A stretch of 63,992 nucleotides of DNA, the filler included, from Folioceros fuciformis (taxonomy: Eukaryota): the NCBI GenBank assembly GCA_049999805.1. It is 4 parts of 3 records of this genome, joined end to end, with 100 filler letters (N's around TTAATTAATTAA, not from the genome) between each part and the next. Parts side by side here need not be neighbours in the genome. Positions count along the whole stretch, not along the records: positions 29,435 to 41,010 come from JBNGIO010005635.1; 3 more parts are not named here. One strand, 5' to 3'. A program made the position numbers and the translations under genes. Of this stretch, positions 17,261-46,842 are shown one piece after another (the stretch's first letter is position 1; each line of letters begins with the position of its first letter). The notes below the pieces were generated by a model. That model was given only the letters and a program-made list of their open reading frames with translations. It was not told the DNA's origin and did no database searches.

Positions 17261-18412
17261 TCCCTGCACTATCCATTGCGTGTCAGGATATCAAACAAGC
17301 ATCTTCGATTGCAGGCTAACAGCCGAATCCTTGGATGGAACTTGACACAGATGCTTGCTTGCTTGTCTGGGTCAAGCTGTTCACTCACTGTTGGGAGAAG
17401 GATGTTTACTACTAATTAATGTGAAGCCTTCCAACCAAACCTCTTGCAAGCCCTGCATCCCACGTGAGCTCAATCAGTATCATTGAATGAGATCTGTGCA
17501 TTGCGTGTGTGCTTTGATGATCCATTCCATCATCGTCCTGACCCCTCTGCATTCAGCGAGGAGTCCGAGGTAGAAGGAAATGTGTAACAGCTATGACATG
17601 TATGCATGAACGTACATATGTACACACATTCTATCCGCCATGAATTGGAATGGAAGACGCGAGATATCTGGAAGAAAAGACAGAACTGCAGGGCTTGCAG
17701 GTGGCAAAGAGTGGAAAGAGATAGGCACCATGTGCGACCCGGTGGGTTGCTGAGCCGGCCACATTCTGGCTGTCAGCCGCCCCCCTTTTCAAAATTCCGT
17801 TTAGAGACGCGTATTAGAATTTAGGGTGCGCCTGGCATTTTCAAACCCACCTCCGGTTAGGTTTGGCAACGGCACCCGCCCAGGGGCGGTACGGAGAGCA
17901 TCGCGGCCGTCTCTGCGCTCTTCCCGCCATGTCTTCTTAACTCAGGTTACGCCTTACTCGCCGAGATCTACTCCTCGCTCTTCGGCTGCGTTACTCCCTG
18001 CAGGTTCGCATTCCTCACGGCCCGCGCACTCCCTGCCGTTGCCGCCGTCCGCCCTCCGCTCTGCTGCTGCCGGAGCCTCGTTGCACCTCAGTGTTCCAGG
18101 CGCGTTTCTCTCAGCTCGCCCTTCTGCCAAGGTTTGCTACGCCCTGTCCTGCGCTTCCGATGCACCACGGGATGAGGATGTTTGGTGCTGTTTTCTAGGA
18201 GTCCGGGACTGGTTGTAGCTGGCATCTGGTTCGTTTCAGTGCCTCCCTGCTCTTCATTGTTCCGGCCTGCGCTTCTACGGCTACGGTTCCGCTTTCGGTC
18301 AACGGGTTTGAGTCGGTTTCGAAGCAGAAGTAGCGGGAGGTGCGGTGCTCTGAGAACAGCGCTTTAATCCAATGTCTTGTCGGTTGTCTTGCATTGCAGG
18401 ATCTCTGCCAAG

Positions 18413-19955
<1,543 letters not shown>

Positions 19956-24495: not shown

Positions 24496-27400
24496 TTAGT
24501 TCACCATTTGCAGGCTGAAGTGACCTTGGAATACGTTGGACGCAACATTCTGACATGTTTGTAAACAAGATCGTAGTTTTGAACTTGACCTGTAAGTGAA
24601 AGGTTTTGGATATGATAATTGCTCGCTTAATTCAAGAAGCTTGGAATAAATCTGGTCTGATTGCTCGTTACTTCTGTCGCCTACAAGAAACACGTGAACC
24701 CTCTTCTCGTGCTCGATCCAACTCTGGCCAGGCTTTCTCTTCCATGGACCTGTACGCACTCGAAGCTCTTCTATTGTGTTACATAGTCTACTTGCTTCCT
24801 CCCACATGTTGGCCTCATGGTAGATGTTCAGCATCATTAAGTACGCTGATGTCTGCTTTGGTTCCAAGCTCACGGCCTCCTTGAAAGCATGCTCGCCTAG
24901 TCCTACGTTGCCATGTTTTCGACAGGAGCCAAGCAAGGACAGCCACAATGCCACATCGGGTTGCATAGGCATTTCCTGAACCAAGTCTTGGACTTGACGG
25001 AAGAGCCCTGCACGGCCCAAAAGGTCCACCAAGCTGACGTAGTGCTCCAAGGTCGTCTGGATGCTGGGATCTGCTTCCATGCATTGAAAGTATTGGATAC
25101 CTTTCTCTACCATGCCTGCATGACTGCAAGCATTCAAAACAGCAACATATGTGACTGCATCGGGCTTTACGCCTTTTCGTTGCATTTCTTCGAAGCACTG
25201 AAGACATCTATCAGAGTCCCCTAGTTGGGCATACCCTGCAATTAGTGCGGTCCATGATACAATGTCCTGCTGGGCCAAGGTATCAAACACGAGCTGTGCA
25301 TCAAGCAGGCTACCACATTTGCTGTACGCATGGATCAGAGTGGTTGCTAGAACAGTAGTTAGCTCCACTTTACCATTAATTATATCGCCATGTATCTGCC
25401 TACACAGGCTAAGCGCTCCAGCGTTGCTACACGCTTTCAGGATAGACAGAAATGTTGCTTCATCAGGAATCACAGATGCTTTTTGCATCTCGTCGTATAG
25501 CTGCATAGCCTTTTCGTGATGTTCCTGGTCAACATACCCCGCCACCAATACATTCCACAAAACAACATTATCCTGTGGCAGTGTGTGAAAGACAGAAAGG
25601 GCATCCATCATGCTCCCACACTCCGCATAACTATTTGCCAACGTGGTGCCCACAAAGAAGTCGGAGATATAGCCCCTCTTGAGAATTTCAGCATGAGTGA
25701 CTCTAACCTGTTCAAGGGCGTCTGGTTTGACGAGCTGTCCGTTGACAATAGTCGAATCCTCGGTAGCTGCCAACCTGCCACATGCTTTCAGGACACTGGC
25801 AAAAGCCTGACCGTCTGGCTTCACACCTTTGACCCGCATTTTTGCATAAAACTGTAATGCCTCAGCACCCTGTCCTTGTTCAGCGAATCCTGATATCATT
25901 GCACTCCATGAGACTACATCTTGCTGAGGCATCTTGTAAAAAACATGCTCCGCATCAATCATACTTCCGCATTTCGAATACATATGCACCAGCGCAGTAC
26001 CCACAAATAAGTCTAGTTCCTGACTACACCTAGCAACATCCGCATGAATAGTCCGGCCCAGTTGCAGGCAATCTTTCTTGAGCATTTGACCGATAACTGG
26101 TGTCCCTGTTCCCGCTAGGCCACTGCAGGCCTTGAGCGCACTCACAAAAGTCTGGTTGGTCGGCTGCACACCTTCCTGTTGCATGCGTGCATACAGATGC
26201 AGAGCCTGTGGATAGTTTCCCTGATGGACACTTCCTGATATCAAAGCATTCCACGATACCACGTTGCGCTTGGACAAAGCGTCGAACACATGGCATGCAT
26301 CTTCCATGCTTCCGCATTTGGCATACATATCGATCAAGCTGGTGCCAACAAAGACATCGGATTCATAACCTTGAGTAACCGCAATGGCGTGGACCACCTT
26401 GCCCGTCTGCAGGGCATGTGGTTTAACAGATCGCCCATGCGCTGTAGTTGTCTCTTGTTCCTGGGCTGAGAGGCTCCCACATGCCTTCAACACACTAGCC
26501 AGAGTCCACTTGTCTGGAGTGAAACCTTCATTCTGCATCTGGTTAAAGAGCTGCAAGGCCATCCGGCCATCCTCGTTCTGAACGTATCCTGCTATCATTG
26601 CACTCCATGATACCACGGTGCGTCGGGTGAAAGCATCAAAAACAAGTCTCGAATCCAACATACTTCCGCATTTTGAATACATATGGACAAGAGTGTTGCA
26701 AATGAACGAATCTGATGCAAGCCCCTGGGCAACAACTTTAGCATGAATCATCTTACCTCCATGCAGCGAGTTGCACTTGATAGCCTGACTGCCTACAACT
26801 GACGCCTCTTCTTTACAAGCAAGAATACCACATGCCTTAAGTGCGCTCACGAAGGTCCAGTTGTTAGGAGCTACTCCTTCCCCCTGCATACATGCAAAGA
26901 GATCCAACGCTTCCTCAGCCTGACCTTGTTGCACATATCCAGCTATCAACGCATTCCAGGACACGACATTACGCTGTTGCAACCCGTCAAACACTTGTCT
27001 GGCATCCAACATGTTCCTGCATTTCGCATACATATCGACCAGTGTTGTCCCCACGAAAACATCAGACTCGTAGCCCAATCGAGCGATTTCAGCATGAATC
27101 AACTTCCCCCGTTTCAGGGACCCCACTTTACGTGTCTGTCCAAGAAGAACCGTATCTCCCTCCAACACTGCCAAGCTGGTACAAGCTTTAAGCAAGCTGA
27201 CGTACGTCCGTTCATTCGGCACAACCCCGGCCTCTTTCATCCTCTCAAACAGTTGAAACACCTTCCCACCGTCTCCCTTCCTGGCATTCTCAGCCAGAGT
27301 AGCATTCCACGTCCTCACATCTGCAGGCCGTGTCCCAAAGACAGCCTTCTCTGTACCTACATCCGACCTCAAGCTCTTACTCCTGGACTGCTCTAACCCT

Positions 27401-27504
27401 TGCATTCTTTCGACGCCAGTCGCGCTCGATCCTCCCTCATACCTCACTCGGCACATCGCTACATTCACAGTCACGCCAGGACAAGCCCACCAGATAACTG
27501 TCAT
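24496..27504 (-). CDS. Intronless PLS-class PPR protein with E1/E2/E+ region and no DYW domain (probable organellar RNA-editing factor); start codon uncertain
   Basis: Repeated DVFVGT.LVDMYAKC / VVSWNALIAGY / TFVSALKAC triplets; EHYVSLVDLLGRAG, WLSLLGSCRKHGN, PG box KPGQSWIE, VFLVGDRS; no HSE/CxxC/DYW. Confidence 0.92.
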   Translation of the reverse strand: MTVIWWACPGVTVNVAMCRVRYEGGSSATGVERMQGLEQSRSKSLRSDVGTEKAVFGTRPADVRTWNATLAENARKGDGGKVFQLFERMKEAGVVPNERTYVSLLKACTSLAVLEGDTVLLGQTRKVGSLKRGKLIHAEIARLGYESDVFVGTTLVDMYAKCRNMLDARQVFDGLQQRNVVSWNALIAGYVQQGQAEEALDLFACMQGEGVAPNNWTFVSALKACGILACKEEASVVGSQAIKCNSLHGGKMIHAKVVAQGLASDSFICNTLVHMYSKCGSMLDSRLVFDAFTRRTVVSWSAMIAGYVQNEDGRMALQLFNQMQNEGFTPDKWTLASVLKACGSLSAQEQETTTAHGRSVKPHALQTGKVVHAIAVTQGYESDVFVGTSLIDMYAKCGSMEDACHVFDALSKRNVVSWNALISGSVHQGNYPQALHLYARMQQEGVQPTNQTFVSALKACSGLAGTGTPVIGQMLKKDCLQLGRTIHADVARCSQELDLFVGTALVHMYSKCGSMIDAEHVFYKMPQQDVVSWSAMISGFAEQGQGAEALQFYAKMRVKGVKPDGQAFASVLKACGRLAATEDSTIVNGQLVKPDALEQVRVTHAEILKRGYISDFFVGTTLANSYAECGSMMDALSVFHTLPQDNVVLWNVLVAGYVDQEHHEKAMQLYDEMQKASVIPDEATFLSILKACSNAGALSLCRQIHGDIINGKVELTTVLATTLIHAYSKCGSLLDAQLVFDTLAQQDIVSWTALIAGYAQLGDSDRCLQCFEEMQRKGVKPDAVTYVAVLNACSHAGMVEKGIQYFQCMEADPSIQTTLEHYVSLVDLLGRAGLFRQVQDLVQEMPMQPDVALWLSLLGSCRKHGNVGLGEHAFKEAVSLEPKQTSAYLMMLNIYHEANMWEEASRLCNTIEELRVRTGPWKRKPGQSWIEHEKRVHVFLVGDRSNEQSDQIYSKLLELSEQLSYPKPFTYRSSSKLRSCLQTCQNVASNVFQGHFSLQMVN

Positions 27505-28234
27505 CCAGCCCAACGAAATCCCTCTCGACCGTAACGCTTCCTTCCTGCTATCTACCAGTAATCCGTTCGAATTTGGCTCCAGCTCCAGCACTCCTCTCAA
27601 ATCCGAATGAACCTCTCTCGACCGCACTGCTTCCAACCTAGCTTGACAGCGTGCCTGCAACCTCCAGACATTGGAAATGTGCTAAACACTGGCGACCATC
27701 TAGAGTCCTTCGATCTCAATAAGGTCTGAGGAGCAGTCTAAAATCGCTCCTACCTCTTGCTCCATCCCGATTGCTCTCGACACTATCGCAATTGACCAGC
27801 ATCGCTGCTACACCCACTTGCCGACTAACTCGATTCCGAACGAAGATCCACAAGAAGCGAGTGAGCAGAGAATCCAAACAGCTGCTGAAATGAGCCTGCC
27901 TTGTCCGTATACGCGAAATCCGATTCCAACCGTTTCAGAGGCCTATATTACCAGGACGTCAGGACCCGACTGCCCGGTCCCATGAACTCACTCACTCACT
28001 CGACCTTGGGAATAGGAAACGTCAAATATTCTCTACCGTCCGAACAAGTCTAAATACTTCTAGATCTTCTACAGTAATAATACATTATTATAAAATAAAA
28101 ATTACAACAAGTCACGAACCCTGGTTCTCTCTATAACATGAACACTGTAAAATTTAATAATCTTAAAAGGATTCTATTTTTACAACTTTTTACAATAAAT
28201 GTGACTGTTAAACATTTGATTTTGTTGTCTGACC

Positions 28235-29334: not shown

Positions 29335-29433
29335 NNNNNNNNNNNNNNNNNNNNNNNNNNNNNNNNNNNNNNNNNNNNTTAATTAATTAANNNNNNNNNN
29401 NNNNNNNNNNNNNNNNNNNNNNNNNNNNNNNNN
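29335..29433. other. Assembly gap with artificial TTAATTAATTAA linker
   Basis: N-run with an embedded all-frame stop linker. Confidence 0.95.
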
Positions 29434-29480
29434 NCTCCTTCGTGGGAACGAAACCCAATGTCTCAACGACAGTGGGATAA

Positions 29481-31229
29481 GTGTGGCCACTAAAGGTAGA
29501 ACTCGTTGGCAATCAGTGCCCGGGTTTTGCCTCCACGGTCGCGTCGCAGGGGTACAAGCGGTGGGGCGTCCCGGGCTCGGCTCCTATGAAGGCACCTCGG
29601 CGGAGCACGTTGGGTGGCCTACGTGGCCAAAAATTGATGACTAAGAGCGGTAGCGGGGCCGACTTGGATGCCACTAAGAGCACGCATGGCAGGGGCCGGA
29701 ATCGGAAGGCTCCCTGCAGCGATGGGGAGGATTGCAAAGTTGGAGATGCTGTCGAGGGAGACCACGAGGGGGAGTCTGAGGAGGGGGAGGACTCTGCCTC
29801 GTTCATGGATGATCACAGGTTGGTGTATGAGGCTGAGGCATTCAAGCGCAAGAGGATTGTGAAGGGCGTGGCAGAGTTTTTCGTTAAATGGGTTGGGTGG
29901 CCAAAGAAGGCAAATACATGGGAGCCGTATGAAAATGTTAAACATCTCCTCACAGAGTTTGGTCCCATTCTTGAGGAGGGGCATATCAAACGTGGGTCTC
30001 AAAGCAAGCGAAAAGGAATGACACTTGTACTATGATTGACTCCGTAAAAGATGCAGAAGGAACATCCGACGCTAGTATGAAACCTGAGGGCTCAATAGGA
30101 CGAGTGGGAGGTGATGACCAGTCGGACCCTGCCCCAATGGATGCTGGCCATGCTGGCAGCCTGCCAAACATTGACATGGAGATAGCTCATCAACCCAATC
30201 TTGATAGGTGTGAGACGGCACATGTGGGTATAGAAGAGGCATCACATGCAAGAGACCCATGTGTAGTGGAAAAAGGAATTTTGGACAAGGAGTTGCCAGT
30301 CATTTCTATAGAAAGTCGGGAGGACAGTCCTCGTGTTGATAACAAGCTCTCTGAGCTGCCTGCATGATCCATTTGAAGCTTACGATGATGGCAAAGTGGA
30401 AATTGCCTATAGTGATGGGAAAGCCAGCAATGATTGTGTCACTGGAGCCAAGAAAAGAAAGAGTGGGTCTGTCAAGCGAGTTGTCCTAAGTTTAGATGAT
30501 GTGGAAAACAGAAAGTCATCTATGCCTGAACCTTATGGCTCTTAGTATGAGGTTGCTGAACTTGTGGATGGTGCAGTCGTATGGGAAAGAGGATTGGCAG
30601 ATGGTTTGCAGCTTTTTGGCGAGGGTTTGGAGGATGAATCAAACACGAATACTCTTCCAAATGATGCTTTTGAAGAGCTAGGGAGTATGGTTGCAGCTCT
30701 ATCGGGATGGGGTGCTCCCTTTGGCCGGATCCATGTTGCATCCGCACATGTAGGAAACAAGTCCAGGCCTTACTACATGGGCTACTTGGCCTCACCGGTG
30801 GAACAAGCAAGAGATAGGAACGGGTAGGGGTGCTTGATGCCCCGGGGCTGGTGTAGGCAGCTCCACATCTCCCTATTTGTGTTTGTCAAGCACAATAGGA
30901 TAGTTGTGGAGAGGCCAGAATACGGCTTTGCCACCTACTTCTTTGAGTTGGTGTAGACCATACCCTACACATGGCAAGTGAAACTAATGGTGACTGTGCT
31001 GGGTTATGCATGCGTGGGGTGAGCAGCACTGATGGAGAACAAGCCACTGGTGGTCAGTGAACACTTGTATGAGGACCAGGCTGTCATACTGGAGGGCCAT
31101 GGGTGGACAAGAGGCAGTGGCATTGGAACGTTGCTAAACATCTACGATCGTGTTGTACATGATTACCACATGGGGGAAGGTGAAGTAATTGCAAGGGAAG
31201 TGGCTGTAGATTGGTTGGGGGGGAGCTAA
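29481..31229 (+). pseudogene. Decayed intronless ORF: acidic N-terminus, LHP1-type chromodomain, LHP1 hinge motif and an unidentified C-terminal domain; TE-associated
   Basis: YEAEAFKRKRIVKGVAEFFVKWVGWPKKANTWEPYENV; TGAKKRKSGSVKR; two compensating frameshifts and four in-frame stops link the listed ORFs 29481, 30032, 30333, 30564 and 31032. Confidence 0.75.
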
Positions 31230-31264
31230 TAATGAGTTCCAAAAGACCAGCTAGCAATTTTTTC

Positions 31265-32094
31265 ATAGGCCGGAGTTAGGATTAGGTTCTTGGTGGGTGT
31301 GTGAAAGATTTTTGAGCATGTGAACTAATGTTGACACTGGTAGGTAGTGATGGGTAGTTCTTGGCCAAGATAGGTTAAGGGGCCAGCCCTATCATTTAGC
31401 AGGGGGGCAGTCTTCGGTGTGATTCCCCTTGTTCGTTGAGTGCAGGCTCCCGGATTAGGGTGCTGATCTGGTGTGAGTGTGCTGCTTGGGCTTGATCCCC
31501 TTGCCACTAAGGGGGATGTGGTGGATCCTTGGTTTGCTAAGATCTGTGTGGCTAGATCTGCGGGTGTGGACCCTCCTTGCATGCTGGCTGAGGTGCCTTG
31601 ATGTCCTTGGGTGAGGCTTCCGATGTAAAGGTTGGGGAGCTGTGAGCCAAGAGGGCTATCCGGCACCTAGACCTCATGTCTCTGCCTTAAAGTTGCAGGT
31701 GGGGAAGCTGTCGTGTCACAAATTTCAAGAGTTGAAGTGTGGTGTTGAAGGCAATTGTGAAAGCTGGATGTGAAGGAGGAGCTGAAGTTGAAGACTTGGG
31801 CTGGGGGTTGGTGGAGGTCGAGTGAGAAACATTTGGTTGCTAGAGTGACTGTGAAGCTGGGCATACATTGGGGGTTTCTTTTTTTCCAAATGCTGAGATA
31901 GCTTGTGCATGCCATAGGAATAAAGTTAGGAGTTAGGCCTAACCACTATAGCACTGTTAGGTTGAGTAGGGGTTGGTAGGTAGGATCAGGCTAGAATAGC
32001 TTAGTTTGGTTGCCTTGACACGAGATCACTCCATTGGGAACGAATCTCAAGACTGCAATGACAAGATGGTTAATGTGGACCTCTTTGTGACACA
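31265..32094 (+). repeat. Diverged copy of the ~1-kb LTR family (copy A)
   Basis: Collinear blocks shared with 42819-43876 (GGAGTTAGG.TTAGG, TGCAGGCT, TTGAT.CCC.TGCCACTA.GGG, CCTTGACAC.AG.TCACTCC.TTGGGA.CGAAT); ends approximate. Confidence 0.7.
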
Positions 32095-32108
32095 TTAGGG
32101 GTGGAAGG

Positions 32109-34197
32109 TGTGTAAAACAAGCGTAGGTGAGAGCATACGGAACTCTGATAGTTGGAATTAACAATAATTGCAATAACAAAAATGTTTAAATACTATCTAT
32201 GTGTCTATTGACCAGACAACCCTAAATCCATATAACCTGAATATAATTAACTATGCATTAGGTTTAACTTCTAAGCTAACACCCCCTCTTAAACTAACCA
32301 CAATTAATTTAAAATGTGAACCCTGAGATGAGGGACTTCCTACAAGGACCAGGGAGTTGGGCATCACGAGGAACAGTCTCTCACTCGCGCACACTTGAAC
32401 GTAATTCGGTGGTTGGAGCCGATGATCCAGCTTCTGTTCTGCAATCAAGGCCGCGACTATAAGAATGGAGCTCCACCTCACTGTGCTTACCGCCAAATCT
32501 CAACTTGCGCTCTTCATCTTCACTCGTCTGTGGATTTATTTATTTTTTGTTAAAATTTGTAACGGCTGCAAAAAACTGATTGTGTTGTTACTTGTGCAAC
32601 TCAAGTCATTTGGGAGGTGCAGAATACACGTTCACACAAATTAGCGGAGGAGCACAAGCTTCCACCACCCCTCTTCTATATGAGTAACTGTCACTCAAAT
32701 AGGCAGAGTGGTCCCTCAGTCCCATGCCCTCCATATGATAATAATGTTTGCATTGGGGCAACCCTTTTGTGAGGATGTCGGTAGTGTTTCCATTTGTCCG
32801 TATGTACTCCAATTTAAGAACACCTTTGTGAACCACATCTCATATGTAGTGGTGTTGCACTTCGATATGCTTTGTACGAGCATGAAATTTTAAGCTCTCT
32901 ACTAACTCAAGGGCTGCGATGTTATCGCAGAGCACAAGAGTGGGCTTCTCCTACAGCTGTCCCAAATCCTGGAGGAAGTTGCATTCCCATTCGGCCTCTT
33001 TTGCTGCTTCAGTCAAATATTTATACTCAGCTTCAGAGGAACTGAGAGCAACAGATGCTTGCTTTTTGCAGCTCCATGTGACTGCTGCTGAGCCCAATAG
33101 ATAGCAATATGTGGAAAGACTCCTATGTGCATCGGAATCTGAGGCCCAGTCAGCATCTATGAAGCCTCTCAAGATCAGTTGCCTTTGTCCTATGCTCTTG
33201 TACGTAAGTCCATACTTGTGCATACCTTTGAGATAACGAAATGTCCTCTTGACAACTACCCAGTGTACACTAGCAGGATTTTCCATAAACTGCAAAACTG
33301 TACTAATAGCATATTGTATGTCAGGTTGAGTTCAGTTCGCAACAAAAATCAGAGACCCAACAACATGTCGTTAAGGTATGTCCTGCATGTCCAACTTTTC
33401 AGCTTGTGACTTTGGGCATTGGTTCTTGGTCAATTTCGTGCCAGCAGCATAGGGAGTGGTGGCTGGCCTGGCCTCATCAAGGTTGAACTTTCTAAGTATC
33501 TCGTTTATGTACTTGTACTGGTGGATAAATAGTAACCCTTCTTCGCTTACACAAAGCAATTGGATTCCCAAACAAAATTTTAGCTCCCCTATGTCTTTCA
33601 TGTCGAATCTGCTGCTGAGTTTGTCCTTCACACTTGCTAACAACTTTTGATCGTTTGTGGCAAATATAACATCATCCACATAAAGTGCCAAGATGACGAT
33701 TGATGCTCCTTGAGTAAGCTTGTACACATTGTTGTCGGCTGCATTTTGGATGAAGTCAATGCTGAGCAGGTACAAGTGCATTGTAATATACCAAACACGC
33801 CCGCTTTGGTTCAAGCCGTATATGCACTTCAAAAGCTTTAACACTTTGTTCGAATGCTACTTGTCTTTGTAGGCTTCAGGGTACAACATATACAGCTCTT
33901 CTTTGAGGGCACCATACAAGAAGGCAGTGCAAACATCCATCTGCTATAGGTCAAGGTCAAACTCAGCGGCATAAGCAAGCAGAATTCTGATGGACTGTGT
34001 ACGAACAATAGGCAAGAAGGTCTCTTGATAGGCAAGGCCTTTCACTTGGGTAAACCCACAAGCTATGAGCCTTGCTTTGCATCTGGCCACCCGTCCATGT
34101 GCGTTGAGTTTGATTTTAAAAACCCACTTACAATTGATCGCCTTTCTTCCAGGCGGGAGGCATGCAAGTACCCATGTCTTATTTTAATGAGGGATTG
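32109..34197 (-). mobile_element. 3' half of a Ty1/Copia element (RT, RNase H, PPT, LTR sequence)
   Basis: LPPGRKAINCKWVFK, ALYVDD, GFIDADWA..TWSCKKQ..ALSSSEAEY, DILTKGLP; purine tracts followed by TG at ~32667 and 32281 on the minus strand; cut at 34197 by an inserted LTR. Confidence 0.9.
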
Positions 34198-35174
34198 TGT
34201 GGAGTGATTTCTTACACCCAAGAACCACCAAAGGGCCACACTTTCCCTTATTGTCGTTGCAGTCTTATGATTCGCTTCCAAGGGAGTGAACTAGCGTCAA
34301 GGAACACCTACGGCTGTCTACTCACACTTCTACCTATCAACCGGTCTCTAGGCCTGACCACATACACCAACAAAAAGGCCAGAATCCTAGCCTATCTTCA
34401 AATCAACCCACAAAACTCACACTCTAGCTCTTCAGTCCTTCAGCTCTTCATGATTCCCACCTCAATCCTCCCTTCTCCACTTCAGTCATTCACCCTTCAC
34501 TTCAACACACACTCCTGCACCTCAGCAACTCACTCTTCACTTCACTGCACTTCACTGCACTTCACTCCAGCTCTCCCTCTCTTTGCTTCAGCTATCCCCA
34601 GGAAATTGGGACACAACGACCTCACTCCTTGCAGTCTTCAAGGATGGTGTGGATATTATGACTGGATAGCCCTCCTGGCTCACGGTCCTATCACTTCACT
34701 TCAGCCAGCCTACAAAACATTCAGCCCTTGCGGATCGGGCCACAAGGATCTCGGCAGTCTTGGGATCCTCCACGTTCCCCTAGTGGCAAGGGGAATCAAG
34801 ATCTCGGTTCAGTCTCAAACCGGCTCAATACCCTAGGCCGGGAGTTCTGCACACAAGGTCAAGGGAAATTGCACCGTAGACACCCCCTCTCAATGGCAGG
34901 TCTCCCCTCTTATACTGCCTAACCCTCCATCTCTGTCTACTAGAGTTAACCTGAATCAACTACCTAACCACCTCTCCTGCCCTAAGCCATTCTGCACCCA
35001 GTTCTGACCTAGGTATGACCTAACCTAACCCAATCTAGGTCTGACCTAATCCGGAGCTAACCTAAACCTAACCTAAGTCCAACCCAGACTTAAACCTAAC
35101 CTAAATCTGACCTAGACCTAACCAAGGTCTAACCAAGACTTAATCCCAACCAAGGAGAGGGGTGCTTCTCAACA
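34198..35174 (-). repeat. 3' LTR (copy B) of a probable Gypsy-type element inserted in the Copia RT
   Basis: Minus strand PPT GGGAGGGGAGAGGGG then TGTTGAGA...CACTCCACA; same termini as 42819-43876. Confidence 0.85.
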
Positions 35175-35468
35175 CCCCTCTCCCCTCCCGGATCAGATCA
35201 TCTCCCTCTCCTCTCCCGGATCATATCATTTCCTCCCCTCTGATCATCCTGCATTCTTCGGAGTCTTCCACCTTTAGGCCCTTCCCTCCATCCTGTGTCT
35301 TCCCCCTGGGCAGTCACCTACTCGGTGTTAGGCTTGCTGGCTTTCCAACCAGCCATCTAGCCAGTCTTCGGCTGCTAGATCCGGTCGAGACCCTTCTGTT
35401 CACCCCGAACGAATGTCCATGCAGAACCGCCGATGGGGGGGGAAGCTGATCTGCACTGCACCTGGTTT

Positions 35469-35761
35469 TGTCAATAGGATCGACTCCAATCTACGTGCAA
35501 GTGTAGGAGAGGAGAGGAGAGAAGAGAGGGTGGTATTGGTGATCACAACCATGAAAACAATACACATCACCATTGTCTTACTATGGAGGTCCGAGGTCTC
35601 CATTTAAGTAGTACATTTAGGGCTACACAACTTCCAGGTTCAATATGGGATAATCTACACTATCCTAAGTTCACTAATAACTAGAACTAGTCTAGTATGA
35701 ACCCAACTGGGATAACTAACACCACATGAGTTTAGCTCATATAGAGCTCGATAACTCAACA
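35469..35761. mobile_element. Solo LTR (293 bp)
   Basis: TGTCAA...CTCAACA flanked by a perfect 5-bp TSD GGTTT (35464-35468, 35762-35766). Confidence 0.8.
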
Positions 35762-38244
35762 GGTTTGACCGGGATTCGGAACAAGCCGCTCTCCTTGGTT
35801 TGCAATGCCTAAGTGTGAGTCCATCCATGCCTGGGTGCTCTCGAATTCGACAGCTTATCCTCAACCACTGCCTGAAATCAGCCAGCACGCCGTGACTCCC
35901 CTCGCTCTGCTTCCAGCCAAACTGCAACTGTCCCTTTGCTTGATCTTTGGCTGATAGGTCCAATTAGCTCAACCATAAACCCGTCCCGACCTGCCCCAAC
36001 CTGGATTGGCTAGGTAGCTAGCCCGTAGCCTGTTTGTTGCCTCCCTGGGCTGGGTCAGGCTAGGCTGCTAGTTAGTCTCCTCAACATCCAGCCACCCTAC
36101 CAGCTGGCCCTCAGTATCTTTGTTGGCGAATAGGCGGCACAGGTTGATGACCGACAGCTCCGTGAAGCTCTGTGGACTCCACATGCTGAACAGGTCCGAG
36201 GAAAATGATAGGATTTCTTTTTTTAGAATCTCTAAGTGAATTATGTAGTGAAATGGTTAGAAGATTAGATTAGTAGCTAGATTAATGGTGAGTTGATTGG
36301 GTCTAGGAGGGTGTGTGGTAGATAGACACGGGCTCGAGTTCCTTAGGATAAGGTAACAGAGGAACAGAACCCTAGAACGGGTCATGGGAGGTGAGCCGGG
36401 GCTCTCTCTGGCTGATGCTGGTGGAAGTGGGAGACGGGGATAAAGGTGCCTGGGGCCGAGGGTCTGAGAGCAGGCGGTCACGCAGGGAGGGCCTAAGGTT
36501 GTGGGAGCATCAGATTCGGGAAAGCTAGCCAGCCAAATGGCCAGGCCAGGGGGAGCGTCGACTCAGGGTAAGTAGGTTGGAGAGTAGCCGGATCAGGAAT
36601 GGGCCGGCTGTTCGGCTAGCCACACTAATCGGCTGACTTGACCTGGGCTGAGGACGGGCCTGGCTGGCGGAATGTAGTCAGAGTCGGGGCGGCGCGAGGT
36701 TGGTCGGCTATGCATGCAGAGCCAGCCAGCTGGGAACTGTTGGGAGCAACAGCTGGGTGCAAATGGGTTGGTCGGGCAATTCGTTGGTGGGCTGGCATCC
36801 AGGCGGTGGTTGCAGAAGACAGACCCGACCCGTCAGCAAGTAGTTAGGCAGCTGCCTGGTGGCTGGCTGGGACGGATCTGGATGGATAGCAGGTAGAGGC
36901 GAGTCGGCTGGTGCTAGGCAGGCGGCTTGGCTGATCGGCCAGATAGCGGCTGGCTTGCAAAGGCCGGCTGTGGGCAGCAGCCAAGCGACTGAGGAGTCTG
37001 TGGGCGACCAATAGATCAGGTAGGGCCGGTGGCTGGAGGACCCAGCAGGATGGCCAGGGTTGGATTCGAAGGCCGGGCAGTTAGCTGAGGCTGGCAGCTG
37101 GCCGGGTTCGGACTGGTAGGGTAGGCGGCCAGGCTGATCGGCGGGAAGGCCGGCTGCAAGTGGATCCAGGTAGGTAGGCGCCTGGCCGGATCACCAAGGC
37201 AGACGGTGCGGAGAAGCAGGTCGGATTGGCAAGATCTGGCCTGCGATTGGACCAGCCAAGTGGTCGGTAGGCTGGATGGATCGCGGCCAAGTGGGTGGTA
37301 GGCCGGGCAGACGAGTCCGGCCAGGCAGTCAAACAGCCACCGGTTGGCTGGCGGCTGGCGTCTGGCTGAGGGGAGTACGGGCCGGGAGGGATCCTGGCGG
37401 GTGGCGGGCAGCTAAAAAGCTTAGGCAGCAGCCCAGACCGGCCCGGCTGCTGAGAAGCAGGTAGGCAGCCAGCAGTTGGCCCATCAAAGCAAGGCGGCTA
37501 GCGGGCTGCGTGTGATCCAGACCTGGTAGGCTGGATCCCAGCTGCTGCAAGAGACGCGCATCCTGGCAGCTGGCTGGATCGCGGCCGGGCCAACCAGGCA
37601 AGCAGACCCAGGCACTAGCCGACCAGGTGGGCAGCCAGAGGCCGATGGGATCCATGCACGGTCCGATCAGGTTGGCGGATCCCGAAAGGCAGGAGGTCGG
37701 CTAGCAGGCGGGTTGTGTTGCTGGATCAGCCGACTAGCGACCAGATCTAGGCGACTAGGCAGGCGGGCTGATCAGGCTGTGCGGGCTGATCAGGCTGTGC
37801 GGGCCAGGGGGATGAGCCGATCGGATGTGGAGGAGCTGTAGGGGGTGCTGCGCAGGGCTAGCTGGCTGAGCGGGAGGTGGCGGCGTTAGATCTACAGGAA
37901 TAGTAGGCCGGCACCGAATCCGAGCTGGGGTCTTGGCCGGATCAGACAGGTTGGCTAGCTGTAGGGAGCTAGCAATGGCAGTGGATGGCGTGCGGCCGGG
38001 TGGTGGGCAGAATCGATCAGCCAGCAGACCAAACAAGCAGGTGCTGTTGGCCTGGCAAGGTGATGGAGGCTGGCTAGTTGGCCAGGCGGCTGGCAACAGC
38101 TGCTGAGGTCTAGGCGGCCACCGCAAGTGGGAAGAATGAGATGACAAGGACCGTCCTCAGGAGCCGAGCAAACTCGCACCATGGCTTCGCTGCAGGCAAA
38201 TCGCGGGGATGCAACATGGCAGCGGAAGGTAGGAGCCTAAAGTG

Positions 38245-38454
38245 AAGGTCTCGTTGCTTGGGTCACGACGGTAGCTAGGGCCGGACCACACTGCTATGGG
38301 ACCTGGAAGGAAAGCAAAGGTCTCATTGCTTGGGTCACGACGGTAGCTAGGGCCGGACCACACTGCTATGGGATCTGGAAGGAAAGCAAAGGTCTCATTG
38401 CTTGGGTCACGTCGGTAGCCAAGGCCAAAGCACGCTGCTATGGGACCTGGAAGG
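38245..38454. repeat. 72-bp tandem repeat, ~3 copies
   Basis: AAGGTCTC.TTGCTTGGGTCACG.CGGTAGC at 38245, 38317 and 38389. Confidence 0.9.
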
Positions 38455-38816
38455 GCAGTGCGGACGATGTTGTGGTGGGCCCGTGGAAGCGCTAGGGCAG
38501 GGACGACTTCACCGGCGGGTCTACGAACAAAGGTTGGGCGGCTACAGTTCTAATGGGATCAAGAGGTCGAACTTCCAGCGGGATCAAGAGAGCAAACTTC
38601 CAGCAGGATGTAGAGGGCGAACGGCCCGGGCTCAGGCTAGATCTAGATTGGGTGGCTTGGCTGGCTGGTCGGCAAGCTGGCGGCTAGCAGAGGATGGCTT
38701 GGCTGGCTGATGGAGGCCGGGGTGGAGCCAAGAGTAGGCCGTTGGCCGGTTGGCTGCAGTGGAGCTTGACTAGCAGTGGCAGTAGGCGGACAAGCAGCGG
38801 CAGCATAGCCTGAGAC

Positions 38817-39071
38817 CAATAGCGGCAGCAGGCAGCCCAGCAGCGGTAACATGCAGCCCAGTAGCTTCGGGTTGACTTCGGCTGGCTGGCAGGCAGATCT
38901 AGGCAGCCCAACCTGGCCTGGCAGTAGGCAAGCAGCCCATAGGCAATAGCGGCAGCAGGCAGCCCAGAAGCGGTAACATGCAGCCCAGTAGCTTCGGGTT
39001 GACTTCGGCTGGCTGGCAGGCGGATCTAGGCAGCCCAACCTGGCCTGGCAGTAGGCAGGCAGCCCATAGGC
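38817..39071. repeat. 127-bp tandem duplication
   Basis: CAATAGCGGCAGCAGGCAGCCCAG at 38817 and 38944. Confidence 0.9.
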
Positions 39072-39841
39072 TGGCAGAATCCAGGCCAGGTGGGCGGCTT
39101 TAGATCTAGGCCAAGCGGGCTGCAGGCAGATCTAGGTTGGGTAGGTGGGCTTGTCGTGGCAAGCAGATCCTAGCAGACTGGCAAGCACCCGGGCATGCCA
39201 GTGAGCGGTGCCAAATCTGGGCGGCCAAGGCCGGATCCGGAAGCCAGGCAGTGGCCTGGCTGCAGGACCCAAGCAGAGGCCTGGTGGTGGACTTCAAGGA
39301 GCGTCAGGTGGCAAATCCAGCAGCCAGCTAGGCTGGCTGGCGGCTGGCCAGGTGGGATCCTGGCAGGCAGGCCTGGCCAGATTGCCAGGCAAGCCAATGG
39401 TCGGTGACGGGCTGGCCGGGCAAGTTTGCTGGCGGGCTGGCATCCAGGCGGTGGGTGCAGGAGACGAATCCAGGCGGGCTGAGGGGCGGCAGATCCAGGC
39501 ACTCGTTGGATCCAGGCTGGCTGGCTAGATCATGGCTAGTCGGTGGGATGGCTAAACCGCGACCAGGCAACCAAGCAGCGGCAGCGGGCCGACAGTAGGC
39601 AGGATGGCCAAATCGGCGGCTAGTAGGAGGGTGCTCCGGGCTCAACAAGCGGCGAGCAGATTGGTGGCTGGCCGGGGTGGATCTGAGCTAGGTTGGAGCC
39701 AGGATCCATGCTGATGGTCTGGCTGGCTAGCCAGTAGCAGGTAGGCAGTTGCACAGGCCGAGGGTTGGGGGCCAGATGGGTTGGCCGGATCGACAAGTAG
39801 GCAGGTGATTGGATCGGGGATGGAATTGCGGGGAGACTTGG

Positions 39842-40025
39842 GGAAATCCAAGCAACTCTTGTTTGTGTGCTTGTGTTTTTGGTGCCGATTAGGAAGGCTG
39901 AATCGTGGTTGCACAGACAGGCGGACTGGTTGGTAGAGACTCGAGGAAATCCAGGCAACTCTTGTTTGTGTGCTTTTGTTTTTGGTGCTGATTAGGAAGG
40001 CTGAATTGCGGTTGCGCAGATAGGG
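39842..40025. repeat. ~103-bp tandem duplication
   Basis: GGAAATCCA.GCAACTCTTGTTTGTGTGCTT.TGTTTTTGGTGC.GATTAGGAAGGCTGAAT at 39842 and 39945. Confidence 0.85.
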
Positions 40026-40459
40026 GCGGGCTGGTTGGCAAGGAGGCTGGGCTGGATCGCGGCAGGCTGGCAGACAAGCAGGCATCAAGGTGGCGCTGTA
40101 GGATCAAGCTGGGGCTGAGCCAGGGACCTCTATAGGCAGCTATGGTAGCAGTTGGAGAGTGCATTCGTTAGCAGGGAGAAGGTCCTCACTAAGGGTGAAC
40201 TGGAGTTGAAGGAAAGTTAGAACAATTGGAGGTCAAGAGTGTGGCATTGGATATGAGGGAGACCTTTCAGGAGTCCTTCAAAGAAGGAGCCTGGTTGTTA
40301 AATTTGAAGGGGCCAAGTCTGGTTCAAAAGGTGACAGCCGTAGTGTAGATAGCCGAGACGTGCCCAAGCTTGCACGACACCATGGCAAGCATTAGGAAAA
40401 GAAGCCATAGAGTAGAAGATGCAGAAAACAGGTTTCTATGGAAGTAGCACTCGAAGAAT

Positions 40460-40895
40460 ACTCGCCTAGGCTGCTTGGTCGAGCTGTTGGAACAGGCAAG
40501 AGATATGACCGAGCAAGGGTGCCTGGTGCACTGGGGCTGGGGTAGGCAGCTCCACGCCTTCCTATTGGTGTTTGTGAACCACAACAGGATAGTTGTGGAG
40601 GGGCCAGAATACGGCTTTGCCATCTACTTCTTGGAGTGGGTGCAAACCATACCCTACACGTGACAGGTGGAATTGCTAGTCATTGTGCTGGGGTTATGCA
40701 TGTGTGGGGCAAGTAGCACTAATGGAGGACCAGGTTGTTATATTGGAGGACTATGGGTGGAAAAGAGGCAGTGGCATTGGAATGTTGCTAAACTTTTGCG
40801 ATCATGTTGTACATGGTTACCATACGGGAAGGTGGAGTATAGCAAGGAATTTTGTTATGGCAATGCCCTATGTTGGAGATAAAGCCAACCTCTAG
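40460..40895 (+). pseudogene. Second decayed copy of the unidentified domain seen at 30770-31229
   Basis: EQARD..QGCL..GWGRQLH.FL.VFVNHNRIVVEGPEYGFAIYFLEWVQTIPYT...EDQVVILEDYGWKRGSGIGMLLN..DHVVH. Confidence 0.85.
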
Positions 40896-41010
40896 GTAAG
40901 TAACGGTCGTTAGGGTTAAGTGAAGCGTTATCTAGTCAAGTATAAAAGACACAACTCAAACACTTTTTGTATTCATTTTTATTTGTTTTGATGAAAGTTT
41001 ATCTTGTACG

Positions 41011-41110
41011 NNNNNNNNNNNNNNNNNNNNNNNNNNNNNNNNNNNNNNNNNNNNTTAATTAATTAANNNNNNNNNNNNNNNNNNNNNNNNNNNNNNNNNN
41101 NNNNNNNNNN
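41011..41110. other. Assembly gap with artificial linker
   Basis: N-run with TTAATTAATTAA. Confidence 0.95.
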
Positions 41111-42240
41111 GCCGCACTTTGCTTCTCATACAAGTCACACAGCTTCTGCCATAGCTCGAAACTTGTGGTCTTGTCTTTCACGTTGAAGTAGACCGACTTC
41201 GACACTGTTAGCATGATGGTAGACCTAGCAAGCTCATCTAGATCCTGCCACTCATCCTGAGTCATGCTAACAGGTTTCACTCCTAGCAGCTTGATGGGCT
41301 TGATCTGCTTCTTCTGTACTAGAACATTATACACTTGTTCTTTCCAGAACGGGAAGTTAGTACCATCTAACTTCTCGATATTGAACACGACGTTTTTGAG
41401 GAGGTCATGCTTCAAAATCGATCCAAATCAACCAAAAGGCTAGTTTGAAATTGGTCGAAATGAAATGTAGATTCTACAGGTTTCCCTCACAACTTCTTCC
41501 GAATCGTATGTCCACAACTTGGGCCTCTGTCGCTCATAACAGGAATGTCCTCCTATGTCTGATCGAGATCCTGACTTCCTCAGCCGGGGTCAATACGGCG
41601 CCCACACACTCGCTCCCGGCATCTGCGATTTGTTCACTTTCCGGCGCTCGTCAATCGGGTCCTCGCTTCACTGGCACGCTCGTTTCGCGCATCACGGGCA
41701 CCCACGTGGTGCCCGGTGGCGCCTAGGTGGCACCCGAGTGGCGCCCAAGTGGTGCCCAAGTGGCGCCGAGGTGGCGCCCGGTGGCGCCCAAGTGGCTCTC
41801 ACATGGCTCTTAGGTGGCGCCTGCATGGCGTCAGGGTGGCGCCTGCATGGCGCCCCTCCCCCTCCTAGATGGCCATCTTCATGGTCTTGCTCCACAACCT
41901 GCTCTGATACCACTTGTAGGACCACTAAAGGAGCATGGTGGAGGAGAGGAGAAGAGGAGGTAGAGAGGAGAGGAGAAAAAGAGGTCACATTGAGAGTGGT
42001 TGGCAAGGGAGCTCAAGGGGTATTTATACCCTCTAGAAGAGCTCCCTAGGAAGCTTCACAAGAAGCTCACAGGAAGCTGCGCAAGAAGCTTCCTACAGAT
42101 TAGCTTAAACTAATCTAAACTAATGATACTTAACTAGACACTAATCTTAGACTAAACACATTAGTCTAAGCACATTAACTAGACACTAATCTTAGACTAA
42201 ACAAATTAGCCTAAGCACATTGGGCTTTAATAACCCTACA
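41111..42240 (-). mobile_element. 5' end of a Ty1/Copia element: LTR 41915-42240, iMet PBS 41901-41912, gag N-terminus running into the gap
   Basis: TGTAGG...CCTACA inverted termini; TGGTATCAGAGC on the minus strand; IEKLDGTNFPFWKEQV..W..LDELARSTI.L..LWQKLCDLYEK. Confidence 0.9.
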
Positions 42241-42818
42241 AGGTGGAAAGGGCCAACCAGACCCCTGAAGATTGGATCAAGGGGGCGGGGCTAGAAGTTG
42301 GGGATTCAGGGACAAGGTGGAGGGGGAGCAGCTCAAGTCTGGCTCCGGCTCGAGTCTAGCTTTGAGCAGGGAGGCTGCAGTGGTCTGGACAGAGGTTAAG
42401 GGGCGCAGCCTGCCAGGAGAATACGTGCAGACAAAGCTGAGGGACGTGCGAACTACCCTATCCAGGTATCAAAGTCAGGAGTAATGCATCTCTCCTGTCC
42501 TGTGGTAAGCCAGATGACATAAGTGGCCTTTGGCTCTCCATCCACGAGCAGCACGCCTGGCTGCTTGTAGGCGGAAAGCCTAGTATAGGCGTGCTGTTAG
42601 CAGGTGGGAAGCCAAGTGATGGTTATGTTGGTAGAGATGGTGGGTTGTCGCTTCCAGTGCCAAGCTTACAAGGTGCCCACGCAAGGGCACTAGATGGGTA
42701 GCTCTGCTGGGTCATGGGCCTTGGCCAGCAGACTGGAGGGAAGGGTCTGAAGATGGTGGGTCTCTGAACGATTGCAGATGATCTAAGGGAAAGGAGAGGA
42801 TTGGAGAGGGGAAGAGGG

Positions 42819-43876
42819 TGTTGAGAGGCACTCGTGAGTTTTGGCAGTTTGGAGAGGTTTGATTAATTTTGATAAGAGCAACCATGGCCATAAGTCGGGG
42901 TTAGGTTAGGTTAGAGTCGGGTTAGGTCAGAGTTAGGTTTAGGATTAGGTCGGAGTTAGGTTTAGGGTTTTGACGAGTGGAGGGTTCTGTCTGAGGCATG
43001 CTGACCTGGTTAGGCAGTGACAAGGGTTCTTGGGCAAGGAGTTGGGCAAGGAGGTATAAGAGGCTAGGCCTGTCATTGAGGGAGGGGTTTTTTTTGGTGC
43101 GAGCACCCTTGACCTTGTGTGCAGGCTGCTGGGTTAGAGGGTTAATCCAGTGTGCAAATGCACCTCGACCTTGATTCCCCATGCCACTAGGGGAACGTGA
43201 CGGCTCCCAAAATTACTGAGATCTGGGTGACCTTTCTTGCATGCTGGTTGGGTGGTTGGGATACCTTGACGTCCCTAAGGGGTTTCCAAGGCAACGGATT
43301 GCAGGGCTGTGAGCCGAGGAGGCTATCCAGCCTGGGTCTGCACATCCCTGCCTCAAGGACTGCAAGTGAGGGGCTATTGTGTTCCAAAATCCAGGAGTGA
43401 GATGTGAGGGTGAAGGGGCTGAAGAGTTGAAGTGATGGAGTAGAGACTTGAAGTGCTGGAGTAGAGACCTGAGGTCTGGAGTTTGGAGTTGTTGTGATGG
43501 GGCTGAAGTTCTCAACCAGCTGCTGAGGTGGCTGGAATTTAGGGCTAAGAGTGGAGGTCGAGGCTAGGGCTAGGGCCTCCTCTTAGCTGCTGAAGCGGCT
43601 GATACTAGGAGCTGGAAGTGGGAGTTGAGGATGATGTTGAGTCCTCATTCAACTGGGGTCGTGGTTGGTGTTGAAGACAGGGTTCTGATCTTTTTGCTGT
43701 AGTGCGGTTAGGTCTAGGAGCCGGCTGATAGATAAGATTAGATTTGGGCAATGTGGGGAAGATTGTGGGGAACCTTGACACTAGTTCACTCCCTTGGGAG
43801 CGAATTCTAGTACTACAACGATAATAAGGGGGAAGTTTGGCCCTTAGTGGTTCTTGGGTGTAAGTTCCACTCCACA
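42819..43876 (+). repeat. 3' LTR (copy C) of the ~1-kb LTR family, with decayed internal sequence at 42241-42818
   Basis: PPT GGAGAGGGGAAGAGGG then TGTTGAGA...CACTCCACA; no PBS follows. Confidence 0.85.
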
Positions 43877-46742: not shown

Positions 46743-46842
46743 NNNNNNNNNNNNNNNNNNNNNNNNNNNNNNNNNNNNNNNNNNNNTTAATTAATTAANN
46801 NNNNNNNNNNNNNNNNNNNNNNNNNNNNNNNNNNNNNNNNNN
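46743..46842. other. Assembly gap with artificial linker
   Basis: N-run with TTAATTAATTAA. Confidence 0.95.

Follow-up and report, generated by a model that had tools for sequence, protein, structure and literature searches.

The question raised by the locus described here is how part of a plant chromatin reader came to share a reading frame with a domain of quite another gene, close to a repeat that resembles a long terminal repeat (LTR), and whether a mobile element ever made use of the product. The locus occupies positions 29481-31229 of a 63,992-nucleotide stretch of Folioceros fuciformis DNA (assembly GCA_049999805.1; filler included), hereafter the window, which has a G+C content of 0.49 and is plant-like. 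An earlier note on this DNA had proposed that a retroelement family captured a copy of LHP1 (also TFL2) and built from it a chimeric accessory protein. Our analysis leads to a different answer: the locus is very probably a dead chimera confined to a single place, in which the first 1.0 kb of an LHP1-type gene was joined in frame to 0.6 kb encoding a domain of an uncharacterised land-plant family, designated X, the two sources being separate and the joint copy having since decayed. It appears to be a by-product instead of an accessory gene belonging to a mobile family.

The evidence is drawn from the window, from protein databases and from contigs of four runs carrying one species label (X1 to X4, not to be confused with family X), which were compared with positions 29435-32200; X1 and X2 are DNA runs. 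The parts of the locus, and the positions at which its frame is broken, are the following.

29481-30035, plus strand: frame A, with its first ATG at 29586.
29975-30367, plus strand: frame B, from translation of the open reading frames.
30312-31229, plus strand: frame C, in the same frame as A and ending at 31227-31229 (TAA at 31227).
30014-30017, plus strand: first frame break, from A to B, where the alignment of the other locus splits at 30014/30017 in X1 and X4.
30361, plus strand: second frame break, from B to C, one extra letter in the window that is absent from the other locus in X1, X2 and X4.
29549-30585, plus strand: LHP1-derived part, delimited by contigs and tblastn, in which a 37-nt leader and the ATG at 29586 precede the acidic tract, chromodomain, basic patch and hinge.
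29823-29951, plus strand: chromodomain (Pfam PF00385, E 7.9e-10, and alignment to the PDB).
30441-30479, plus strand: LHP1 hinge motif TGAKKRKSGSVKR, an identical 13-mer in P0212 and P0255.
30583-30585, plus strand: fusion point, a 3-nt overlap (GGG) between the source matches, from contigs and tblastn.
30585-31179, plus strand: C-terminal domain of the uncharacterised land-plant family X, from the match to P0008, with stops at 30825, 30954 and 31020.

The three frames join into one ancestral frame of ~583 codons (29481-31229, plus strand) through two frame changes and four in-frame stops, all four inside frame C (30543, 30825, 30954 and 31020). This agrees with the earlier note, which had read one frame of about 580 codons with two compensating shifts and four stops and had called the copy dead. 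Both frame breaks and the stop at 30543 fall within the LHP1 part, where an open reading frame was not kept.

Judged by its sequence, the front part is derived from LHP1, because a chromodomain is followed by a basic patch and then by the hinge motif; the earlier note's attribution of this part to LHP1/TFL2, and its acidic tract, chromodomain and hinge, are borne out. Among 66 PDB matches to the chromodomain, the LHP1 entries 8xag (E 1.7e-12) and 7vyw (E 2.4e-12) are best and Polycomb/CBX7 comes next (E ~5e-10). A tyrosine and both tryptophans of the KW.GW motif align with LHP1, and these we take to be the residues of the aromatic cage. In LHP1 itself, W129 belongs to that cage, according to PMC5749160. 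An exhaustive database search with the chromodomain returned 942 proteins at E<=0.001; when these are ordered by the score of each one's best domain, the first 30 include 22 LHP1-type proteins, as judged by a hinge or chromo-shadow signature, and several of the remainder are visibly truncated LHP1s. By tblastn, residues 362-466 of P0240 match 29718-30032 (E 2e-14), and LHP1-type queries also match the hinge. The hinge pattern G-A-K-K/R-R-K-S-G-S-V-K-R occurs 29 times in the 150 best of the 942 chromodomain hits and in none of 127 X-family proteins; in PMC5749160, conserved basic residues of the LHP1 hinge are described as binding RNA and overlapping a nuclear localisation signal. The chromo-shadow domain of LHP1 is missing, as the earlier note had said: in tblastn searches with P0231 and P0240, no part of the window matched one at E<=1, and Pfam gave no match to it on six frame pieces.

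A chromoviral origin of the chromodomain finds no echo in these searches. Ty3/gypsy integrases resemble the locus in having a chromodomain near LTR-type sequence, but the chromodomain of the window is N-terminal, is followed by the LHP1 hinge and comes with no reverse transcriptase (RT) or integrase, neither being found by Pfam in the LHP1::X frame itself. Among the chromodomain relatives, no RT or integrase was seen in the 10 long hits scanned, crude RT/integrase patterns matched none of the 150 best hits of 942, and no chromoviral polyprotein was recognised among those 150; the earlier note's distinction from chromoviruses therefore holds. A word-index search of longer proteins with the chromodomain piece gave 22 candidates, none of which scored.

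In place of the chromo-shadow domain stands another domain, again as previously noticed, which the earlier note had called unknown. It belongs to a conserved land-plant family: 30546-31226, read through its stops, finds P0008 as best match (E 1.8e-51), and tblastn of P0008 against the window gives 49.7% identity over 199 amino acids (E 3.5e-52), the match beginning at 30585. The matches comprise 7 proteins whose length is similar and 212 that are longer, and the family (LOC110739012-like) is present in mosses, lycophytes, conifers and flowering plants under names that say only 'uncharacterized'. Its architecture is a coiled-coil-like N-terminal region followed by the C-terminal domain, and the core motifs of the latter, WGWCR ... 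HNRIV.ERPEYG.ATYFFEL ... DRVVHD, are all present in the window; RPEYG[FY]A occurs in 126 of 127 X-family proteins. The window match begins at ERGL (30585), past the nearly invariant ALQEDAPGLL that opens the conserved region, and lacks the family tail EW.KIGK.LMDG, for which no exon was found in 31100-41010. Among the best 120 of the 212 long members, 24 have a NAC domain (PF02365) fused to X and none has a chromodomain, by the precomputed Pfam column; those X-NAC members that carry species names are monocots, some named NAC domain-containing protein 8. Searches of the X domain itself gave no Pfam model (only sub-threshold G-patch hits), coiled-coil noise only in NCBIfam, no usable match in the ESM Atlas and, by profile against PDB sequences, 5 hits, none relevant. 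An AlphaFold model reaches a mean predicted local distance difference test (pLDDT) score of 75.2 and a predicted template modelling (pTM) score of 0.76, and none of 368 Foldseek matches of this model to the PDB stands at E<=0.001. Conserved from mosses to flowering plants without a named function, family X is possibly a more useful lead than the chimera.

The contigs bear on whether the two halves are joined anywhere else. Contigs with 0 differences from the window, which represent its own copy, are found in both DNA runs. Between them, X1 records 1, 4 and 6 cross the left boundary, with cover of 29473-29948, the fusion, with cover of 30552-30926, and the right boundary, with cover of 31110-31370; the fusion is bridged by X1 record 4 and also by X2 record 12. 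A second version of the LHP1 part, ~94% alike, extends over ~29920-30585 and then diverges from the window. To this LHP1 source belong X4 record 25 (29549-29892), X1 record 3 and X2 record 11 (30014-30391/30481), and a loose end at 30585 in X4 (record 26); the stretch 29621-29899 of the LHP1 part has no extra DNA contig cover and was excluded from the evidence. Contigs of the X source, ~89-92% alike, match from 30583 only (X1 record 5, X2 record 13, X4 record 27) and carry 675-692 unlike letters upstream of 30583 in all three runs. Because the LHP1-type contigs end at 30585 and the X contigs begin at 30583, two separate source loci are indicated; as far as these contigs go, an LHP1-type locus and an X-family locus exist apart from each other and the window is the place where they are joined in frame. 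Contigs of X1, X2 and X4 show a single further version of the LHP1 part, with no continuation into X, a count that does not prove absence since contigs may miss rare copies. The X core and parts of the flanking repeat R are covered by several contigs. The fusion is absent from all 277 database relatives of either half. X4 has no contig across 30583-30585 and none of the window's own copy, and is uninformative on expression.

The damage in the window copy is its own. The extra letter at 30361 is left out in the other-locus contigs (14.4 of 25.9 in X1, and likewise in X2 and X4), the stop at 30954 rests on a T where 5 other contigs have C, and at 31140 the window has A where 8 others have T. In the LHP1 part, the 12 listed differences from the source comprise 4 synonymous and 8 non-synonymous changes. 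At 30014/30017 the other locus appears to hold ~387 additional letters, a figure that we infer by arithmetic on X1 record lengths (858-471), no joint being printed; these 129 codons would restore the hinge length of LHP1s such as P0164 and P0231. The split was also considered as an intron absent from the window, a reading that was dropped: since the X4 contig seems to have the same block, which as ~387 letters or 129 codons is coding-like, it is unusable as proof of splicing.

The history favoured here would then run as follows. The first 1.0 kb would have come from the species' own LHP1-type gene, bringing the leader, the acidic tract, a chromodomain that reads histone H3 trimethylated at lysine 27 (H3K27me3) and the RNA-binding hinge; an in-frame join at 30583-30585 would have added 0.6 kb of another gene's C-terminal domain; and later decay would account for a loss of ~0.39 kb at 30014-30017, the extra base at 30361 and the four stops. 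How the join was made is a separate matter, on which the surroundings of the locus bear.

29335-29434, strand not applicable: join spacer, two 44-N runs flanking TTAATTAATTA, by sequence.
29435-29506, plus strand: left terminal repeat piece, cut by the join and resembling the 3' end of R, by local alignment.
29507-29520, plus strand: motif TGGCAATCAGTGCC, like a primer-binding site (PBS), by eye.
31180-31265, plus strand: transition stretch with the purine run GGGGGAAGGTGAAG, the frame end and fading likeness to a second X copy.
31266-32119, plus strand: repeat copy R1, containing a TATA-like box and, internally, an inverted pair, from similarity to R2 and R3; the 3' end is approximate.
31407-31427 and 32036-32056: inverted pair in R1, 21 nt, 71% complementary, of which one arm directly follows the TATA-like box and the other lies close to the 3' end.
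34198-35290, minus strand: repeat copy R2, TGGAG...CTCCACA, by similarity search.
40451-40847, plus strand: second X fragment, shorter and also broken (tblastn E 1.7e-22).
41011-41110 and 46743-46842, strand not applicable: further spacers of the same pattern, by sequence.
42734-43876, plus strand: repeat copy R3, in another assembled piece, by similarity search.

The paired N runs around TTAATTAATTA presumably mark concatenated contigs, and the window looks like several separately assembled pieces, whose adjacency across the spacers may not be real; the LHP1::X frame sits in the piece 29435-41010, beginning 46 nt past the join. On its right, similarity to the R repeats sets in 36 bp after the frame stop, where the earlier note had placed LTR-family sequence at about 35 bp: the distance is confirmed, R itself being LTR-like. 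The R copies are 0.9-1.15 kb long and 65-84% alike, start with TGGAG, end with CTCCACA and contain a TATA-like box. By eye, R2 and R3 retain the blocks of the inverted pair, whose second arm occurs in the left repeat as well (29443-29463); the pair may be a leader stem. On the left, the terminal piece finds its best matches among 1040 window tiles at the 3' ends of R2 (score 32) and R1 (29), above a background maximum of 24, with R3 at 19. A physical tie to LTR-like repeats on both sides is seen.

Beside R2 and R3, neither tblastn nor local alignment found LHP1 or X sequence. The idea that R2 and R3 start with an X-domain relic was discarded: the local alignment scores were those of shuffled sequence, being equalled or exceeded in 322 and 31 of 500 shuffles, and tblastn found nothing. 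No gag or pol is linked to R, and the only RT near R is the RVT_2 (Copia) fragment at 33374-33856 on the opposite strand. This Copia-type RVT_2 match (E 9.4e-31), with a wider span of 32954-33856 on the minus strand, lies between R1 and R2, which are mutually inverted. The second X fragment is 83-85% identical to the first in blocks of nucleotides and 75.6% over 418 nt; the two have unusual residues in common, and their likeness fades only at ~31196-31230, just past a purine run at 31172-31185. Much of the interval between R2 and this fragment consists of tandem repeats (37763-40038) that are rich in G+C and have periods of 72, 127 and 103 nt.

It is tentatively proposed, as the likeliest of the routes considered, that the chimera arose by LTR-mediated retroposition, with template switching by a retrotransposon RT. 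In such a scheme, the enzyme would change template among the element's RNA and two cellular RNAs where short stretches match, and the product would lie between a left LTR end with a PBS-like motif and a right LTR-like repeat, with no poly(A) tail and with the second gene shortened at its 3' end. Several features fit: the copy starts inside the leader, beside the left R-like end and the PBS-like motif; R1 stands on the right in the same orientation; the sources overlap by 3 nt at the fusion; no poly(A) tail is present, the X tail is missing, and a search for the terminal inverted repeats of a DNA transposon found none. The retrocopies of Tan et al. 2016 (PMC5131818) show the same combination of a cellular-RNA copy inside discontinuous LTR-element sequence, short common letters at the switch, parts of two parent genes, a truncated 3' end and no poly(A) tail; those cases are young and have both flanks from one recognisable element, whereas the flanks of the window copy are old, dissimilar and partly lost, and its loss of introns is putative. 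Maize Bs1 offers a second parallel, being an LTR retroelement with an interior hybrid frame from three host genes according to PMC13317346 and PMC5131818. Like the window, it has a hybrid frame of unlinked host-gene parts between LTR-type sequences; as described there, it differs in having proper LTRs, one to five copies with common switch points, and both transcription and translation, whereas in the window an LTR pair is not established, a single fusion locus is seen and the frame is dead.

A number of observations weigh against the scheme just outlined or limit the data behind it. The loss of introns that is the hallmark of an RNA route remains putative. The X-source contig in X4 (record 27) diverges at 31179, where the window reads AAG/GTGAAG (the stroke marking 31179), like a splice donor; an intron may therefore begin after 31179, its first letters retained in the window, which favours a DNA-level or unspliced origin. 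R is no more than a candidate LTR. The left piece agrees with the R1 end in 35 of 46 columns with 4 gaps, and R1 (29) scores no better than R2 (32); only ~72-95 nt of the left repeat are visible, the body of any left LTR having been lost in the join. Summed contig depth in X1 is 195,626 at 29435-29527 versus 112 at 32039-32131, a contrast that argues for different families; and in a copy that stands 6-11% from its sources, an LTR pair should be much more alike than is seen. The PBS-like TGGCAATCAGTGCC agrees with TGGTATCAGAGC, presumably the initiator-Met PBS motif, at 10 of 12 positions with one indel, a likeness of low specificity, since TGGTATCAGAGC at 2 mismatches without indel is matched 10 times in the window where 5.8 would be expected. 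No polypurine tract was shown, nor a target-site duplication, the left end of which falls in the join. The chromodomain tree (151 rows, 80 columns) left the window on a long branch (1.89) without supported placement, which is why the single-domain scores given above were used instead. X4 is only guessed to be RNA, and X1 and X2 possibly come from the same sample as the assembly, in which case they are not independent of it.

The depth contrast and the 35/46 match also weakened an attempt to view 29435-29515 and R1 as the two LTRs of one element. Next to 29435-29527, depth in X1 is ~10, and dozens of contigs leave at 29492-29536; this stretch has no other copy in the 64-kb window, and neither Rfam nor a tRNA scan, on 29435-32200 or on the window in full, gave anything relevant. 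It may be an LTR end, a satellite or organelle-like sequence.

The main rival to template switching is a chimera formed at the DNA level, in which fragments of two genes were joined by end-joining, ectopic repair or Helitron-like capture and the repeats are unrelated insertions. We consider it rather unlikely, yet much of the evidence just given speaks for it: the donor-like site at 31179 with its possible retained intron, the likeness of the second X copy for ~17-50 nt beyond that point, flanking repeats that are no matched pair, the absent poly(A) tail and a 3-nt overlap that is compatible with end-joining. Pack-MULEs and Helitrons are known for chimeric, mostly dead frames from several host genes in which introns can persist; the window differs in that a search for terminal inverted repeats found none and Helitron ends, to which no dedicated search was addressed, were not recognised. 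Against an origin in DNA also stand the colinearity of the LHP1 part with the X4 contigs over 29549-30585 except for one block, the LTR end and PBS-like motif at the left edge opposite a same-orientation LTR-like repeat at the right edge, and a fusion both in frame and in the same orientation, for which the chance is ~1 in 6. A processed pseudogene made by a long interspersed nuclear element (LINE) from a read-through or trans-spliced LHP1-X mRNA, landing among repeats, is highly improbable. The start inside the leader would suit 5' truncation, the copy is colinear with the X4 contigs, and chimeric retrocopies are frequent in plants (Wang et al. 2006, as cited in PMC13317346 and PMC5131818); it has neither poly(A) tail nor target-site duplication, it lacks the 3' end of the X gene, at which LINE copying begins, and its fusion does not lie at an exon edge of the X source, whose DNA and X4 contigs both begin 692 letters before the match and look colinear. 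Least credible of all is a mis-assembly of two genes. The frame lies close to a join in repeat-rich surroundings, as such an artefact might; the contigs with no differences that cross the fusion and both outer boundaries come from two runs, albeit perhaps the assembly's own sample, and the copy differs by 6-11% from both sources and carries stops of its own.

The remaining possibility is the one that the earlier note preferred, a retroelement family with R as its LTR and a once-working LHP1::X accessory gene for integration targeting or anti-silencing, of which this locus would be one dead member. In its favour, both sides carry LTR-like sequence in one orientation, the two parts share a reading frame, and neither the tryptophans of the chromodomain nor the hinge motif has been lost; X core with the start of R recurs at 40451-40847, X core and R are found in several contigs, 5-8 of which have other letters at 30954 and 31140, and R-like contigs are present in X4. 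We nevertheless regard such a family as unlikely to a marked degree: the one further version of the LHP1 part stops short of X, R2 and R3 adjoin neither LHP1 nor X, no gag or pol is linked to R and the nearest RT is a Copia fragment on the other strand, the flanks are unmatched, the fusion recurs in none of the 277 relatives, and 8 of the 12 listed differences are non-synonymous. The opposite outcome that the note itself had named, a single copy next to a transposable element, is nearly what was found; the recurrence of X core and repeat, in the window and in several contigs, is the part that does not fit it. A broader form of the idea, in which R-type elements carry host-derived frames and one lineage gained the H3K27me3-reading and RNA-binding parts of LHP1, with the locus as its decayed remnant, is likewise quite doubtful. 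If it were true, there would for a time have been a retroelement-borne Polycomb reader, able to guide integration to silenced chromatin or to shield the element from it.

Taken as a dead single-locus chimera, the copy departs from LHP1/TFL2 in a well-defined way. It keeps an acidic tract, a chromodomain that matches LHP1 best, the basic patch and a hinge identical to that of two orthologues, but has lost the chromo-shadow domain and, it seems, ~129 codons of the hinge, has a broken frame and carries a foreign domain. It would be one more case of the shuffling of plant gene parts in repeat-rich DNA, with an unusually clean fusion and both sources visible, and a caution for scans of genomes, in which a chromatin reader with an unknown domain beside an LTR can be a single decayed copy. 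In a literature search, with coverage stopping short of subscription journals, no transposable element was found described as carrying a chimera derived from LHP1. Were intact sister copies to turn up between paired LTRs, the locus would be one of the rare cases in which a mobile element has captured a Polycomb reader.

Some further observations concern the rest of the window and the runs. On the minus strand at 41901-42035, GGTATAAATACC is followed after ~110 nt by an exact TGGTATCAGAGC, which looks like the 5' LTR end and PBS of another, unrelated LTR element. Run X3 has 196 C>T places over 29435-32200 against 52 of all other kinds combined, some C positions remaining C, and looks like a bisulfite-treated library. 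By eye, from translation of the open reading frames, a Copia-like RT fragment lies at 5252-6220 (plus strand), a beta-tubulin gene in pieces at 18368-19952 (plus strand) and an open frame of 1061 codons at 24499-27681 (minus strand).

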